Positions 13,268 to 55,417 are shown, numbered from the stretch's first letter. The stretch: 64,000 bases of DNA from Thermoanaerobaculia bacterium (GCA_963699245.1 OY969426.1:469118-533117), one strand, 5' to 3'. The notes: generated by a model not told the origin, from the sequence alone. Numbers and translations: made by a program.

Positions 13268-14414
13268 ATGCAGATCGAATTGACCGAAGAGCAGCAGCTC
13301 CTGCGCGACACGGTGCGGCGATTCGCCGCCGAGGTCGTCGCGCCCCGCGCCAAGCAGATCGACGCCTCGGGCGAGTTCCCGCTCGACTTCTTCCGCCAGG
13401 CGGGCGAGCTCGGCCTCGCCGGCGTCGCGGTGCCGGAGGAGTACGGCGGCGCCGGGATGGACGCGGTCGTCCTACTGCGTCGCGATCGAGGAGATCTCGC
13501 GCGTCTGCGCCTCGAGCGGCGTCATCCTCTCGGTCAACAACTCGCTGGTCTGCGATCCGCTGCTGAAGTACGGCAACGAGGAGCAGAAGCGCGACTTCCT
13601 GGCGCCGCTCGCGGCGGGCAGGAAGCTCGGCTGCTTCGCGCTCACCGAGCCCGAAGCAGGTAGCGATGCGGCCGCCATCCGGACCACCGCCCGGCGGGAC
13701 GGCGACGACTACGTGCTCGACGGCGACAAGGTCTTCATCACCAACGGCACCCACGCCGACCTGGCGCTCGTCTTCGCCTCGACCGATCCGGCGAAGAAGC
13801 ACCGCGGCATCTCCTGCTTCGTCGTCCCCTGCGACGCGCCCGGCTTCCGCCGCGGCCACCACGAGTACAAGCTCGGCGTGCAGGCCTCGGGCACGACGCA
13901 GCTCTTCTTCCAGGGTGTCCGCGTACCGGCGAGCCACCGGCTGGGCGAAGAGGGCGAGGGCTTCAAGATCGCCATGTCGACGCTCGACGGCGGCCGCGTC
14001 GGCATCGCGGCGCAGGCGGTCGGGATCGCCCAGGGCGCCTTCGAGGCGGCGCTCGCCTACGCCAAGGACCGCCAGCAGTTCGGCCGGCCGATCGCCGACT
14101 TCCAGGCCATCCAGTTCTATCTCGCCGACATGGCGATGGAGATCGATGCGGCCCGCCTGCTCGTCTTCAAGGCCGCGTGGGCCAAGACAGCCCAGAAGCG
14201 CTACAGCCTCGAGGCGGCGCAGGCCAAGCTCTTCGCCTCCGAGATGGCGCAGCGGGTCACCAACAAGGCGCTGCAGATCCACGGCGGCAACGGCTACACG
14301 CGCGAGTACGACGTCGAACGCTTCTTCCGCGACGCGCGCATCACCGAGATCTACGAGGGAACCAGCGAGATCCAGAAGATCGTCATCGCCGACTGGATCC
14401 TCAAAGAAGCCTGA
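13268..14414 (+). CDS. Acyl-CoA dehydrogenase, short-chain/butyryl-CoA type (frameshift near 13470)
   Basis: [81 protein letters not shown]. Confidence 0.93.
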
Positions 14415-14424
14415 CGCGGGCGCG

Positions 14425-15571
14425 ATGACGATCGATTTTTCGCTGTCCGAAGACCAGGAGCTGCTGCGCGCCGAGATCCGGCGCTTTGCCGAGGAGCGGA
14501 TCCGCCCCGGCCTGCGCGACCGCGATCTCGCCCACGAGTACCCTTTCGCGCTCGTCGGCGAGATGGGGGAGCTCGGCCTGCTCGGCATGCTCGTCCCCGA
14601 GGCTTACGGTGGCGGCGGACAGGATCCCCTCACCTACGTCCTCGCGGTCGAAGAGATCTCGCGCGTCTGCCCCTCGCTCGGTGTGACCATGAGCGTCACC
14701 AATTCGGTCTGCTGCTGGCCGATCGCGCACTTCGCGAGCGACGCGCTGAAGCGGCGGGTCCTGCCCGAGCTGGCGAGCGGCGGCGCGATCGGCGGCTTCT
14801 GCCTGACCGAGCCCGGCTCCGGCAGCGACGCGGGGGCGATGCGGACGCGGGCGAAGCGCGACGGCGACTACTGGGTGCTCGACGGCGAGAAGGCCTGGAT
14901 CACCAACGCCGGTCCCGGCAGGTTCTTCGTGACCCTGGCGGTCACCGATCCCGCAGCCGGCAAGCGCGGCATCTCGGCCTTCGTGGTTCCCGCCGATGCC
15001 CCCGGCTTCCGGGTCGGCGCGGCGGAAGAGAAGCTCGGCTTGCGCGCCTCGCGCACCGCGGCCGTGCATTTCGAGGGGTGTCGCATTCCGGCCGGCAACC
15101 TGATCGGCGAGGCGGGGCAGGGTTTCAAGCTCGCCCTGGCGACCCTCGACCACTCCCGGCTCGGGATCGCCGCCCAGTCGGTGGGCATCCACCAGCGCGC
15201 CCTCGAGCTCGCCACGAGCTACGCGCGAGAGCGGGTCCAGTTCGGCGTGCCGATCGCCGAGCACCAGGCGATCCGGTTCAAGCTGGCGACGATGGCGACC
15301 GAGCTCGCGGCGGCGCGCGCGCTGACATGGCACGCCGCCTCGCGCAGAGCACGAGCGCGACGCGGGCCGATACGCCGCCGAGGCCAAGGCCTACGCGTCC
15401 GAGGCCGCCAACCGCGCCTGCTGGGAGTCGCTGCAGATCCACGGCGGCAACGGCTTCTCGGACGAATACGAGATCTCGCGCCTCTATCGCGACGTACGGG
15501 TGACCACGATCTACGAGGGCACCAGCGAGATGCAGCGCCTGGTCATCGCCCGGCAGCTCTTCGCCCCGTGA
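14425..15571 (+). CDS. Acyl-CoA dehydrogenase, second paralog (frameshift near 15350)
   Basis: [72 protein letters not shown]. Confidence 0.92.
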
Positions 15572-16550: not shown

Positions 16551-17194
16551 ATGCCCGAGGCCCCCGATTTCCCGGCGATGGCCGACGCGGTCGTCGCCGG
16601 CGACGCCGATCTCGCGCGGACTCTCGCGCGCGCCCACGTCGAGGCCGGCGGCGACCTGCTGCTCGCCATCGAGCAGGGCTTCTCGGCCGGCATTCGCCGG
16701 GTCGGCGAGCTCTGGGAGGCCGGCGACTATTTCCTCCCCGAGCTCGTGCAGGGGGCCGAGGCGATGAAAGCGGCGATGGGTGAGATTCTGCCGGCGCTCG
16801 CCCGGGCCCGCGGCGGCTTCGAGCCGCGCGGGCGCGTCGTGCTCGGCTCGGTGCGCGGCGACCTGCACGACATCGGCAAGAGCCTCGTCGGCGTCCTTCT
16901 CGCCGCGCACGGCTTCGAAGTGCACGACCTCGGGGTCGACGTCCCGATCGACGCTTTCGTCACCAAGGCGCGCGAGGTCCGCGCCGACATCGTCGGCGCC
17001 TCGGCGCTGCTGACGACGACCATGGTCGCCCAGCGCGACCTCGTCGCGGCGGTGAACGCCGCCGGTCTTCCCCGCCCTCCACGCGTGATGGTGGGGGGGC
17101 GCCGACGTCCCCCCGCTGGGCGAGCGAGATCGGCGCCGCTCACGCCGAGAACGCGATGCGCGCGGTCACGCTGGCGGAGTCGCTCCTCCGATGA
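16551..17194 (+). CDS. Corrinoid (B12)-binding methyl-carrier protein, MttC/MtbC or MetH cap+B12 domain type (frameshift at G-run near 17095)
   Basis: Cap domain VGELWEAGDYFLPELVQGAEAMKAAM; DxHxxG motif GSVRGDLHDIGKSLV; DLGVDVP, GASALLTTT, VMVGG. Confidence 0.92.
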
Positions 17195-18075
17195 CCGGCT
17201 TTCGCGAGCGCTTGGCTGCGGGCCCCTGCCTCCTCTTCGACGGCGGGATGGGTACGCTGCTGATGGCGCGCGGCCTCGCCGCGGGGGAGACGCCCGAGCG
17301 CTGGAATCTCGACCGCCCGCGGGAGGTCACCGCGATCCATCGCCTCTATGTCGAGGCTGGCAGCGAGGTCGTCCAGACCAACACTTTCGGCGCCCATCCG
17401 TTGCGTCTCGCGCGGGCAGGTCTCGGAGGTCGCTGCGCCGAGATCTGCGCGGCCGCCGTCGCCGCCGCCCGTGCCGCCGGTCCTTCCTGGGTGGTAGGCG
17501 ATCTCGGGCCGACCGGCGACTACCTGCCGCCGGTCGGCAGCGGCGATCCGGCCGCCATCCGGTGCGGCTATGCCGCTCAGGCGCGGGCGCTCGCCGAAGC
17601 AGGCGTCGACGCGCTCCACATCGAGACCCAGAGCGACCTGCGCGAGGCGCTCCTGGCGCTCGAAGCGGCGAAGAGCGCGGCGCCGGAGCTCCCGGTCCTC
17701 GTGTCGCTGACTTTCGAACGCAAGCCGCGCGGCTACTTCACGGTCATGGGCGACCGACTGGTTCCCGCGCTCGGCGCGCTCGCCGCCGCCGGCGCCGAAG
17801 CAGTGGGCGCCAACTGTTCGATCGCCAGCGCCGAGATGGCGATGCTGGCGCAGGAGGCGCTGGCGACCGTCGCCGCGCGGCTCGTCTTCCAGCCCAACGC
17901 GGGCCACCCGGAGCGGGACGCGGACGGGCGGCTCGCCTACGCGCAGGCGCCGGAGACGTTCGCCGCCGATCTCGCTCCGCTCGTCGGACAGGGCGCTGCC
18001 GCGCTCGGCGGTTGCTGCGGCACGGATCCCCGCTTCATCGCCGCCCTGGCCGCAGCGATCGAGGCTGGGCGGTGA
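17191..18075 (+). CDS. Homocysteine S-methyltransferase (stand-alone MetH Hcy-binding domain)
   Basis: LLFDGGMGT, IHRLYVEAGSEVVQTNTFGA, GANCS, PNAG, Zn-binding GGCCGT. Confidence 0.93.
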   Translation: MTGFRERLAAGPCLLFDGGMGTLLMARGLAAGETPERWNLDRPREVTAIHRLYVEAGSEVVQTNTFGAHPLRLARAGLGGRCAEICAAAVAAARAAGPSWVVGDLGPTGDYLPPVGSGDPAAIRCGYAAQARALAEAGVDALHIETQSDLREALLALEAAKSAAPELPVLVSLTFERKPRGYFTVMGDRLVPALGALAAAGAEAVGANCSIASAEMAMLAQEALATVAARLVFQPNAGHPERDADGRLAYAQAPETFAADLAPLVGQGAAALGGCCGTDPRFIAALAAAIEAGR

Positions 18076-18753
18076 GCCGAGTGCATGCCTTCGAGGTCGC
18101 GCTCCGGCGCGAGGACGTCCTGCACTTCCTCGGCTATCCGGACGGACGCGAGCCGGCGCCGGCGCTCGCCCGGCTGCTCGACCGGGCGATCACCGAGGCC
18201 CGCCGCCTGGCGAGGCCACGCGCCGCCTGGCGGCGGCTGCCGATCGGGGAGGCGCCGGCGGTCGAGCTCGATCCGCTGGCCGCCGCCGGCCTGGTCGTCG
18301 GCCTGGTCACCGCCGGAAGGCAGATCGAGGAGCTCGCCGCCGAGCGGCTGGCGGCCGGCGACGCCACTTCGGCGCTCCTGCTCGATGCGGCGGGAAGCGC
18401 CGCGGTGGAGGAGGCCGCCGACCGCGCCGGCGCCGCGATCGTCGCCGAGCTCGACGGTGGCGATCCCCTCGCCGCGCTGTTCGCCGGCGACCGCGCCAGC
18501 GGCGGCCACGTCTCCTGCCGCATCAGCCCGGGCTACGGGAGGTGGGCGCTCTCGGCGCAGCGCGCCGCTCTTCGCCCGGCTGCCGCACCGGGCGCTCGGC
18601 GTCGAGCTCGGCGAGTCGCTGCTGATGTCCCCCCGCAAGTCGGTCTCCTTCGCGATGTGGATCGGCGCCGACGCGCGGCCGGTGGCGGGCCTTTCGGGCT
18701 GCGCGCGCTGCGACCTCGAGAGCTGCCGCTATCGGCGGGAAGCGCGGGCGTGA
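18072..18753 (+). CDS. Stand-alone B12-dependent methionine synthase reactivation (SAM-binding) domain protein (frameshift near 18565)
   Basis: ALLLDAAGSAAVEEAAD, RISPGYG, LGVELGESLLMSPRKSVS, C-terminal CARCDLESCRYR. Confidence 0.85.
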
Positions 18754-20211
18754 GGCCTCGCTTCGAGCTCCTCGGCGGCGAGGAGGTCGTCCGCATCGTC
18801 GACGACGCGCTCGTCGTCCTCGCCACCATCGGCGTCGTGGTCGAGAACGCCGACGCCGCGGAGCTGCTCCGCGCGGCGAGAGCGGAGGAGCGTGGCGGGC
18901 GCTTCTTCCTCGACGAAGCGGCCGTCCGCGGCGCGATCGCCGTGGCCCCCCGCCGTTTCGCACTCTTCGACCGCGGTGGCGCGCCCGCGCTGCTCTACGG
19001 AGAAGGCACCACGCACTTCGCGCCCGGATCGGCCGCCATCTACCGCCTCGACGCCGCGAGCGGCGAGCGGCGCCCGGCGACGACGGACGACCTCGTCCTG
19101 CTGGCGCGCCTGACGGATGGCCTCCACGGCTTCGCGGCGCAGTCGACGGCGCTGGTGCCGGATGACGTGCCGGAGGCGATCGCCGATCGCTGGCGGCTCT
19201 ACGTCGCGCTGCGCGAAGGGCGAAAGCCGGTGGTGACCGGCACCTTCCGGAAGGACGGATTCGCGCCGATGCGCGCCCTCCTGGCCGCCGTGCGCGGCGG
19301 CGAGCGCGAGCTCGCCGAGCGGCCGCTCGCGGTCTTCGACTGCTGCCCGACGTCCCCCTTGCGCTGGAGCGACTTGACCGCGCAGGCGCTCGTCGACGGC
19401 GCTCGCGCGGGTGTTCCCGTGCAGACCGTGCCGGTGCCGATGACCGGCGCGACCGCTCCGGTGACCTTGCGCGATGCCATCGCGCAGCAGATCGCCGAGG
19501 GGCTCTCCGGCCTGGTGATCGCGCAGCTCGCGCAGCCCGGCGCGGCGGTCGTCCTCGGTGGCGCCCCGTCGGCCTTCGACATGCGGCAGGGCGCTGCCGC
19601 GATGGGTGCGATCGAGAGCGCGCTCCTCAATGCCGCGCACGCCCAGGTGGCGCACCATCTCGGGTCTGCCGGCGCACGGCTATCTGGCCCTGTCCGACGC
19701 CAAGGGCGCCGACTACCAGGCCGGAATGGAGAGCGCCTCGGGTGCCCTGCTCGGCGCGCTCGCCGGCATCGACCTCGTCTCGGGACCGGGGCTGCTCGAT
19801 TTCCTGCTGACCCAGTCGTTCGAGAAACTGCTGCTCGACCATGAGGCCTGCCTGGCGGCGCTTCGCGTCGCGGCCGGTTTCCACGCCGACGAGCGGGAAG
19901 GAGTCGCCCTGATCGGCGAGTTGGCACGCTCCGGACAGCTCCTCGGCCACCCTCACACCCGCCGACATTTCCGGCGGGAGATCGGGGTCGGCTCGCGCCT
20001 GATCGACCGGACGAGCTGGGGCGATTGGAGCGCGGCCGGAGGCCGCGACGCCGCGGCGCGGGCGCGCGAGGAGGTCGCTCTCCGGCTGGCGGCGAGCCCG
20101 CCCGAACGGCTACCCCCCGAAACCGAGCGCGAGCTCGACGCGATCCTCGCCGTCGAGGCCCGGAAGGCCGGCCTGGAGCGCCTCCCCGGCGTCCCGGCTG
20201 CACTCCCCTAA
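18750..20211 (+). CDS. Trimethylamine methyltransferase (MttB) superfamily protein, non-pyrrolysine type (frameshift near 19660)
   Basis: LVVLATIGVVVENADA, CPTSPLRWS, PMTGATAPVTL, FDMRQG, LPAHGYLALSDAK..DYQAGMES, GPGLL, SFEKLLLDHE. Confidence 0.9.
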
Positions 20212-20277: not shown

Positions 20278-22023
<1,746 letters not shown>

Positions 22024-22528: not shown

Positions 22529-22576
22529 GCGCCGCGCCCTTCGGCCGCTCCGGCCCTCTCTGCTAGCATCGCGATC

Positions 22577-22978
22577 ATGAGTTCGCGCATCCGTCGCATC
22601 CTGGTCGCCAAGCCCGGCCTCGACGGGCACGATCGCGGCGCCAAGGTGGTGGCGCGGGCGCTGCGCGACGCGGGGTTCGAGGTGATCTATACCGGACTCC
22701 GCCAGACGCCGGAGCAGATCGCGGCCGCCGCGGTGCAGGAGGACGTCGATGCGGTCGGTCTCTCGATCCTCTCCGGCGCCCACAACCGCCTGCTGCCCGA
22801 AGTCTCGCGGCTGCTGCGCGAACAGGGCGGCGAGGACATCCTGGTCTTCGCGGGCGGCATCATTCCGGAGCGCGACATCGCGCCGCTCAAGGCCGCCGGG
22901 GTGGACGAGATCTTCCTTCCCGGCACTTCGACCGCGACCATCATCGACTATCTCAATCGCCGCCTGACCGCGGCCTGA
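22577..22978 (+). CDS. Acyl-CoA mutase small cobalamin-binding subunit (IcmB/MutB-type)
   Basis: [56 protein letters not shown]. Confidence 0.93.
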
Positions 22979-53386: not shown

Positions 53387-53473
53387 TGGTGCGAAAGGGG
53401 GGACTCGAACCCCCACGGCCTTGCGACCACAAGCTCCTGAGGCTTGCGCGTCTACCAATTCCGCCACTTTCGC
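53387..53473 (-). tRNA. tRNA-Leu (anticodon CAG)
   Basis: GCGAAAGTGGCGGAATTGGTAGACGCGCAAGCCT-CAG-GAGCTTGTGGTCGCAAGGCCGTGGGGGTTCGAGTCCCCCCTTTCGCACCA; long variable arm; encoded CCA. Confidence 0.97.
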
Positions 53474-55340: not shown

Positions 55341-55417
55341 CGGGACGTGGCGCAGCCTGGTAGCGTACCTGAATGGGGTTCAGGGGGTCCCGGGTTCAAA
55401 TCCCGGCGTCCCGACCA
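55341..55417 (+). tRNA. tRNA-Pro (anticodon GGG)
   Basis: CGGGACGTGGCGCAGCCTGGTAGCGTACCTGAAT-GGG-GTTCAGGGGGTCCCGGGTTCAAATCCCGGCGTCCCGACCA. Confidence 0.97.

Follow-up and report, generated by a model that had tools for sequence, protein, structure and literature searches.

A four-gene cassette predicted to encode an accessory, folate-independent, cobalamin-dependent methionine synthase in a Thermoanaerobaculia bacterium

The 64,000-nucleotide stretch of DNA analyzed here (GCA_963699245.1 OY969426.1:469118-533117, from a Thermoanaerobaculia bacterium; hereafter the window) carries a cassette of four genes within 3.7 kb of its + strand (positions 16551-20211), encoding a corrinoid protein, a homocysteine S-methyltransferase domain protein, a homolog of the activation domain of methionine synthase (MetH), and a protein belonging to the MttB methyltransferase superfamily. 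We favor, with moderate confidence, the interpretation that this cassette is a translationally coupled operon for a predicted accessory, folate-independent, cobalamin-dependent methionine synthase. The idea itself is not new, and the cassette is a further instance of a genomic prediction already published. Williams et al. 2022 (PMC9324843) described in Ca. Electryoneota and "diverse bacteria" a cluster of a non-pyrrolysine (non-Pyl) MtgB/MttB homolog, a homocysteine S-methyltransferase, a corrinoid protein, and an activation protein, found a typical MetH elsewhere in the genomes with the cluster, and hypothesized a novel corrinoid-dependent methionine synthesis with an unknown donor. That cluster and the present cassette have in common the four adjacent components, the non-Pyl MttB, the lack of a folate module, the MetH encoded elsewhere, and the hypothesis drawn from them, at which the two analyses arrived independently; they differ in lineage, which is here Acidobacteriota (Thermoanaerobaculia-like), and both works are purely genomic.

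Architecture of the cassette and its four products

Read in all three forward frames, the cassette extends from an ATG start at 16551 to a TAA stop at 20209-20211, and its genes are joined by 4-base overlaps (ATGA at 17191-17194, GTGA at 18072-18075, and GTGA at 18750-18753). Genes 1, 3, and 4 each contain one reading-frame change in the assembly (considered in the last section), gene 2 alone being an intact open reading frame (ORF). The G+C content around the cassette is 70 to 75%, and long spurious ORFs are therefore common there, one of 1209 amino acids (aa) spanning nearly the whole region. The genes are as follows.

16551..17194, + strand: gene 1, corrinoid (cobalamin-binding) protein; Pfam B12-binding_2 and B12-binding
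17191..18075, + strand: gene 2, homocysteine S-methyltransferase domain protein of 294 aa; Pfam S-methyl_trans
18072..18753, + strand, GTG start: gene 3, homolog of the stand-alone TM0269-type MetH activation (S-adenosylmethionine [AdoMet]-binding) domain; by profile and fold
18750..20211, + strand, GTG start and TAA stop: gene 4, non-Pyl member of the MttB superfamily, ~487 aa; Pfam MTTB

The gene 1 product combines a cap domain with a Rossmann B12 domain (Pfam B12-binding_2, 4.4e-18; B12-binding, 4.9e-19), and its DxHxxG motif, present as GDLHDIGK, is kept together with SALLTTTM in 37 orthologs. Its best NCBIfam model was corrinoid_MtgC (5.5e-46; 156.8 bits, below the cut-off of 310), and the specific NCBIfam models (MtgC and pyl_corrinoid) all scored below their cut-offs; gene 1 reached 157 to 185 bits against corrinoid_MtgC versus 113 to 134 bits against metH. 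Judged by these profiles, gene 1 is a methyltransferase-cognate corrinoid protein, nearer to the MtgC/MttC types than to the B12 domain of MetH. The gene 2 product matched S-methyl_trans (PF02574) over profile positions 1-282 of 283 (1.5e-56, 192.8 bits). Among NCBIfam models it matched PRK08645 (4.1e-66), the betaine-homocysteine methyltransferase (BHMT)-type PRK07534 (2.4e-46), and metH (3.2e-34), all below their cut-offs, so that its closest models are YitJ-type and "BHMT" (MtgE-like). Its GANC and GGCCG motifs, the counterparts of the MetH/BHMT zinc ligands, form a predicted zinc site and are kept in 40 orthologs. Because gene 1 is MtgC/MttC-like and gene 2 is YitJ/MtgE-like, the cassette is a composite of methylotrophy-type and MetH-type parts rather than a MetH that fell apart.

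The gene 3 product carries the motifs RISPGYG...PRKSVSFAMW and a C-terminal CxxCx4C, and its frame pieces gave no Pfam or NCBIfam match at E 0.01. Of the 8000 candidates that a word-indexed search scored, 375 were homologs (E ≤ 1e-3); where these have a name, it is "hypothetical protein" of Thermoanaerobaculia or Acidobacteria metagenome-assembled genomes (MAGs), and 33 of the 120 homologs listed were aligned (alignment A1). The A1 profile matched TM0269 of Thermotoga maritima (PDB 1J6R, deposited as a methionine synthase activation domain) at E 2.1e-9 and the human MetH activation domain at only E 0.18. An AlphaFold2 model built on A1 for the ortholog from a related genome with intact genes (G015) had a mean predicted local distance difference test (pLDDT) score of 81.6 and a predicted template modeling score (pTM) of 0.81. 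In a Foldseek search of the PDB with this model, 1J6R came first (E 1.4e-8; template modeling score, 0.69 by target), and ranks 1-19 (E ≤ 1e-3) were all MetH activation domains, including those of Thermus thermophilus, human, and Escherichia coli, with no other match better than E 0.5; in the ESM Atlas, gene 3 scored 0.96 to "AdoMet activation domain" clusters. Since the profile match to 1J6R, the Foldseek ranks, and the ESM Atlas agree, gene 3 is, by modeled fold and by profile, a TM0269-type activation-domain protein that stands alone. The residues R-I-S-P-G-Y (RxxxGY AdoMet motif) are invariant or near-invariant in the 33 A1 sequences, marking a predicted AdoMet site. The family is large: an exhaustive profile search found 5830 clusters (50% identity) with E ≤ 1e-3, of which 2471 had E ≤ 1e-10 and 107 had E ≤ 1e-30. 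TM0269 itself, which is reportedly required for reactivation of T. maritima MetH, resembles gene 3 in being a stand-alone activation-domain protein of about 215 to 235 residues and is its best match in both sequence and fold (TM0268/TM0269 system), and differs in serving a folate-dependent short MetH.

A second difference from TM0269 lies in the cysteines. Four are invariant in A1, one directly before RxSPGYG and three in the C-terminal CxxCx4C, whereas the aligned TM0269 chain stops ~8 residues after FxxW and apparently has no CxxCx4C. Among the 150 best representatives of the family, CxxCx4C occurs in 125 of the 138 that are at least 195 aa long, and the upstream Cys in only 17 of the 98 with a recognizable RxSPG[YF]G motif. 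The C-terminal 30 residues of the gene 3 model, where CxxCx4C lies, are of low confidence (pLDDT, 48 to 64). We suggest that CxxCx4C may be a metal or iron-sulfur site aiding reductive activation; as far as could be found in the literature searched, the motif has no prior description.

Gene 4 belongs clearly to MTTB (PF06253; cut-off, 25 bits; profile length, 500), which its two frame pieces matched at 3.7e-49 (167.5 bits, positions 29-330) and 6.2e-22 (77.7 bits, positions 338-493) and its intact G015 ortholog at 261.4 bits (positions 30-494). It is not a Pyl-type MttB, scoring 296 bits against TIGR02369 versus a cut-off of 525 and having no in-frame UAG before SDAK; the codon there is CTG (Leu; 19690-19692), and the Pyl (X) of Methanosarcina barkeri MttB (7XCL) aligns to this Leu.

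The same gene set recurs widely. Across 41 genomes (the source and 40 relatives), the N-terminal piece of gene 4 found a match at E ≤ 1e-3 in 10, eight of the matches being strong ones in genomes that share the family or order of the source and that in G013 being marginal (1.9e-4). Among the loci of seven relatives, five are colinear (genes 1-2-3-4) with intact frames, that of G016 has all four genes in the order 4-3-1-2, and that of G028 has gene 4 only, beside a contig end. A wider scan with two conserved gene 3 peptides, taking one genome per species, recovered at least 41 loci, a lower bound because only these two patterns were searched. Most of the 41 are labeled Thermoanaerobaculia/Acidobacteriota, and the others Gemmatimonadota, Myxococcota/Polyangiaceae/"Deltaproteobacteria," KSB1, "Enterobacterales" (some MAGs), or unclassified bacteria. 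All four genes occur in the same order and on the same strand in 36 of the 41 loci (tblastn with the G015 proteins). Of the exceptions, L027 and L036 are cut by contig ends, L039 and L063 (KSB1) gave no gene 1 match at E ≤ 1e-5 beside genes 2 to 4, and L059 (6612-10727, - strand) has in place of gene 4 an opposite-strand gene for a 1372-aa MopE-repeat/beta-helix protein. Four-base overlaps were counted at 30 of 38 gene 1/gene 2, 23 of 40 gene 2/gene 3, and 25 of 39 gene 3/gene 4 junctions, with starts assigned heuristically and one locus containing a read-through artifact. The first-pass annotation of this DNA had described the overlaps, motifs, coordinates, and Leu codon, every one of which was confirmed; it had also placed the sequence in a probable acidobacterium, as the labels of the relatives bear out, and its proposal presupposed that the gene set recurs in related genomes, as it does in these 36 loci.

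The chemistry at every step is inferred from these identities, as are the donor, the role in the cell, and the direction in which the methyl group moves. The gene 4 protein would demethylate a small compound, probably not glycine betaine, and load the methyl group onto Co(I) of the gene 1 protein, and the zinc-type gene 2 protein would pass it from methyl-Co(III) to homocysteine, giving methionine and Co(I) again. After oxidation to Co(II), the gene 3 protein would remethylate the cofactor reductively with AdoMet and an electron donor, a step that would stand in for a RamA-type ATP-dependent activator. A predicted complex between the gene 1 and gene 3 proteins scored 0.54 against 0.26 for the best control, with runs agreeing in at least 78% of contacts and a partner pLDDT of at least 75. 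Of 80 solved complexes, 58 attained the score mark applied, as did 2 of 110 mismatched pairs, and those that passed at ≤ 0.60 comprised 7 of the 80 together with both of the mismatched pairs. Because structures of MetH Cob-Act have been solved, resemblance may by itself account for the pass, which suggests such a complex no more than weakly.

If this interpretation is true, many uncultured soil and sediment bacteria would make methionine with B12 from another methylated compound, leaving methyl-folate unspent, which would add a link among methylated-compound cycling, cobalamin demand, and sulfur amino-acid synthesis and would extend the set of substrates known for MttB-superfamily enzymes. Being short, self-contained, and intact in related genomes, the cassette lends itself to direct testing through expression and methyl-transfer assays in vitro; concrete leads are the gene 4 donor site, which is not conserved, and the Cys motif of the gene 3 protein, which is.

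The methyl donor of gene 4

Two kinds of comparison place gene 4 differently within its superfamily. As a single sequence, the G015 protein had MtgB of Desulfitobacterium hafniense as its best PDB match (188 bits, versus 156 bits for M. barkeri MttB), and it has Leu at the Pyl position as MtgB does. For the clade as a whole, a profile was made from alignment A2, comprising 34 of the 35 complete cassette MttB ORFs (a single short ORF was omitted, as were four truncated at contig ends), and this profile scored M. barkeri MttB (7XCL) at 283 bits, D. hafniense MtgB (9YCE) at 266 bits, and 4YYC at 198 bits. The latter order fits Williams et al. 2022, who set the clade apart from both and nearer MttB.

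As to the donor site, mutagenesis and a ligand-bound structure (Picking et al. 2026) show that Y97 and F356 of MtgB hold the quaternary amine and R312 and H348 the carboxylate; Y97A, F356L, and R312L raise the Km several hundred-fold or abolish activity, and R312 is kept in MtcB, MtpB, MthB, and MtyB. For the 34 cassette proteins, HMMER alignments to 9YCE (residue numbers in its chain are 2 lower than in the paper) gave the following counterparts.

MtgB Y97 (quaternary amine): Ser in the cassette clade, invariant (DPGSAA)
MtgB R312 (carboxylate): His in the cassette clade, 90% or more
MtgB H348 (carboxylate): Ser in the cassette clade, invariant (VSGxG)
MtgB F356 (quaternary amine): Leu in the cassette clade

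With all four betaine-contacting residues replaced, glycine betaine is unlikely as the donor, and on these alignments gene 4 probably acts on something else. The broader donor class given by the first-pass annotation, a methylated or quaternary amine, likewise finds no support in a clade with Ser, His, Ser, and Leu at these positions. The D. hafniense MtgB/MtgC/MtgA glycine betaine:tetrahydrofolate methyltransferase system (2QNE, 9YCE) is similar in that its MttB-family enzyme is non-Pyl, has Leu where Pyl would stand, and methylates its own corrinoid partner, but it uses the pterin-binding MtgA as acceptor and RamA as activator, and its betaine-binding residues are not kept in the cassette.

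For the same reasons we regard as unlikely the alternative that the cassette is a corrinoid-dependent betaine-homocysteine methyltransferase, with glycine betaine, carnitine, proline betaine, gamma-butyrobetaine, or phosphocholine as donor. It would agree with the use of quaternary amines by all characterized non-Pyl MttB members (Picking et al. 2026; Mausz et al. 2025, PMC12478193), with the single-sequence match to MtgB and its Leu, with the likeness of gene 1 to MtgC types, and with an amino-acid permease gene nearby in 4 of the 41 loci. Set against these are the order of the clade profile, the separate placement of the clade by Williams et al. 2022, and a donor site in which the replacements include a change (F356 to Leu) that cripples MtgB and the loss of an Arg that the MttB-family enzymes named above keep.

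As a tentative possibility, we consider a joint reading in which the donor of gene 4 falls beyond what MttB-superfamily enzymes are known to use and CxxCx4C of gene 3 is a metal or iron-sulfur electron site. On the first part of this joint reading, the donor may be neither trimethylamine, used via pyrrolysine, nor a quaternary amine bearing a carboxylate or phosphate; if true, this would define a substrate class that is new, together with a B12 methionine synthase truly independent of folate. A side observation concerns the same protein: A2 contains a conserved, clade-specific FDCCP with two adjacent Cys (~19340-19360 of the window), where MttB has LLCP and MtgB has LINS.

Relation to folate-dependent methionine synthesis

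The predicted operon lacks a pterin-binding module, and so does its surroundings. A relative of the pterin domain of the genome's own MetH was not found by tblastn (E ≤ 0.01) in the 64-kb window, in agreement with the first-pass annotation, which had seen no pterin-binding gene in the cassette, nor in the 41 loci with their 6-kb flanks or the seven relatives' loci. In the whole genome, Pterin_bind matched in two places, dihydropteroate synthase (FolP) and a canonical MetH (C1:1760397-1763818); each of five carrier relatives (90 to 99% complete) likewise has exactly two, FolP-like and MetH. S-methyl_trans matched in the cassette and MetH, Met_synt_B12 in MetH, and MTHFR once, adjoining metH; cassette gene 4 was the sole MTTB match. 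Neither Meth_synt_2 (MetE) nor RACo_C_ter (RamA) had a match in the source genome, which is rated only 66% complete, so that such blanks are weaker than they look; RACo_C_ter matched in one of the five carrier relatives. The metH model matched in 40 of the 41 genomes and reached its curated cut-off in 30, including five cassette carriers.

Since metF-metH is present here and metH in five carriers, the cassette is an addition to the folate-dependent route, not a replacement for it, and because the cell also has this normal route, the cassette would spare methyl-folate whenever the alternative donor is present. What had been envisaged at first pass was a self-contained, folate-independent route with its own AdoMet-type reactivator instead of a RamA-type activator. 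The coupled module without a pterin gene stands, as does the reactivator, given a MetH/TM0269-type gene 3 and no RACo_C_ter match in the genome, and the only Pterin_bind proteins that might have served as a partner encoded elsewhere are FolP and the canonical MetH; the route has to be qualified as accessory, lying beside a complete metF-metH.

These searches also bear on an arrangement of the Ruegeria MtgBCDE type, in which one corrinoid protein would be shared by a donor-to-tetrahydrofolate demethylase and a split MetH by way of a pterin-binding protein encoded elsewhere. The genetic study of Mausz et al. 2025 (PMC12478193) shows for Ruegeria that MtgB, MtgC, the pterin-binding MtgD, and the homocysteine-binding MtgE share one corrinoid, MtgC of R. 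pomeroyi serving both betaine demethylation and methionine synthesis and MtgD being essential for both. The MtgBCDE system of R. pomeroyi and the split MetH of Phaeobacter inhibens resemble the cassette in grouping an MttB-family enzyme and stand-alone corrinoid and homocysteine proteins around one cobalamin carrier, and gene 2 matches the BHMT-type model, which is the equivalent of MtgE. The Ruegeria system, however, needs MtgD, is reactivated by RamA and DUF1638, has scattered genes, and replaces MetH, whereas the present one is a tight operon of four genes coupled by overlaps, includes a MetH-type activation protein, and coexists with MetH; no stand-alone pterin-binding gene was found in the source genome or the five carriers, or within 6 kb in the 41 loci, and no RamA in the genome (DUF1638 was not searched). 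We therefore hold an arrangement of this type to be distinctly improbable.

Compared with canonical MetH (TIGR02082), the favored accessory synthase has the same homocysteine, cobalamin, and AdoMet-reactivation modules, with the DxHxxG, zinc-cysteine, and RxxxGY motifs, and differs in consisting of four separate proteins with an MttB-type TIM barrel in place of the pterin module; nor is it simply a MetH in pieces, gene 1 being nearer to the MtgC/MttC type than to the MetH B12 domain. The core-MetE proteins MesA-D (Price et al. 2021, PMC7857596) likewise represent folate-independent methionine synthesis, with methyl groups thought to come from corrinoid proteins, yet their catalytic fold is unrelated, being of the MetE type and not PF02574, and they lack both an MttB partner and an activation domain.

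The flow of methyl groups might also be reversed, with AdoMet (through gene 3) or a methylated sulfur compound (through gene 2) loading the corrinoid and the MttB homolog methylating an acceptor, making the cassette biosynthetic. In favor of this, the donor site of gene 4 is unlike that of all characterized members, and PF02574 includes enzymes that use S-methylmethionine or AdoMet as donors. Methylation of Co(I) from methionine is energetically unfavorable, however; to our knowledge, all known systems combining PF02574 with a corrinoid protein run toward methionine, and the gene neighborhoods give no pointer to a methylated product, making reversal very improbable.

Several observations weigh against the favored reading of the cassette as an accessory methionine synthase. 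With a full metF-metH, the genome has no need of the cassette route, and replacement of the MtgB betaine contacts puts even the substrate class in doubt. The Pfam check proposed in the first-pass annotation succeeded for MTTB, S-methyl_trans, and B12-binding, all above cut-off, and failed for gene 3, which stays below the cut-off of 25 bits of the activation-domain family PF02965 (17 bits for the intact G015 ortholog, P0001, 234 aa; 13.5 bits for the window piece). Genes 1, 3, and 4 carry frameshifts in this assembly. Riboswitches or other regulatory clues were not found, an Rfam scan at gathering thresholds giving two tRNAs only in the window and nothing in 12 of the 41 loci, and full-text literature searches found no biochemical or genetic experiment on the cassette.

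Reading frames and neighboring genes

The frame changes in genes 1, 3, and 4 are the following.

~17093, within the G7 run 17091-17097, + strand: gene 1, one base missing relative to orthologs
18555-18567, + strand: gene 3, one extra base relative to orthologs
~19663-19665, + strand: gene 4, one extra base relative to orthologs

In gene 1, the C-terminal 33 residues lie in another frame, up to the TGA at 17192-17194. The wider assembly was surveyed with a detector combining a codon-position composition model, derived from the long ORFs of the genome, with a seven-state Viterbi path and run along the entire contig of 3.82 Mb. It found 1478 same-strand frame switches without a nearby stop, versus 1342 ordinary gene junctions, and these switches are evenly distributed at ~0.39 per kb (three in the 3.7 kb of the cassette). 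The window alone has 34 candidate frameshifts (for instance, at 283, 1671, 2626 ... 62865), 13 of them on the minus strand within its first 8.5 kb, and the canonical metH of the same genome is likewise broken into several frames. As a control, the detector gave no switch in 59 kb from four relatives of 90 to 99% completeness, and it gave 0.44 switches per kb in a 65%-complete relative; the source genome is a single contig with its rating of only 66%. The halves of genes 1, 3, and 4 share one frame in each of the five relatives whose cassette is colinear, and conservation at the codon level runs on across each of the three breaks. In addition, a metagenome contig of a related organism, albeit a single one with a depth of 2.8, lacks exactly one base at 18565, which is no more than a hint. 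Given the even genome-wide spread, the absence of switches in clean relatives, and the intact orthologs, the three frameshifts are most probably assembly noise and the genes intact in the organism. That the cassette is instead a decaying pseudo-operon with real frameshifts, as three genes out of frame, its dispensability beside metF-metH, and its patchy occurrence (10 of the 41 genomes) might suggest, is extremely unlikely in view of these data, one of the breaks lying in a G7 homopolymer.

Frequent single-base insertions and deletions (indels) make ORF-based annotation of this genome misleading, and frame-aware checks are needed. A further oddity of the assembly is an A199 run directly followed by T80 at G000:C1:3389166-3389444, flanked by AT-rich sequence, the genome as a whole having 71% G+C; it resembles an assembly or read artifact.

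Among the public sequencing runs listed as matching, none is recorded as RNA, and the best DNA run contained 0.21 of the sampled words; matching contigs and reads are fragments of related organisms, and metatranscriptome-labeled reads partly cover the conserved B12-motif stretch only.

Clustering of flanking ORFs found no family in more than 7 of the 41 loci, although a pre-filter for raised G+C at third codon positions may drop genes in lower-G+C genomes. Annotated flanks include two-component/HD-GYP regulators, acyl-CoA dehydrogenases, the amino-acid permease (4 loci), an AdoMet methyltransferase (3 loci), and others. Because the flanks are not conserved, the four genes behave as a self-contained module. 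Conserved neighbors were also considered as a clue to the donor and rejected, no flanking family being informative across the 41 loci.

Upstream of the cassette, the window contains two acyl-CoA dehydrogenase genes and a GT2 glycosyltransferase gene. The former lie in tandem at 13476-15345 (+ strand), the frame of the second being lost near 15346 as a further case of indel noise, and such upstream pairs recur in a few related loci (L032 and L035). The only Rfam matches in the window lie far downstream.

53390-53473, - strand: tRNA gene
55341-55414, + strand: tRNA gene

Nearer the cassette, the downstream flank comprises a split methylmalonyl-CoA mutase, DinB, a response regulator, and a valyl-tRNA synthetase (ValRS). 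The mutase, also on the + strand, consists of a large subunit (20437-22020, Pfam 6.8e-221) and a small B12-binding subunit (22568-22969, 2.9e-27) with the DinB-family gene between them, and it is a second cobalamin enzyme adjoining the cassette.

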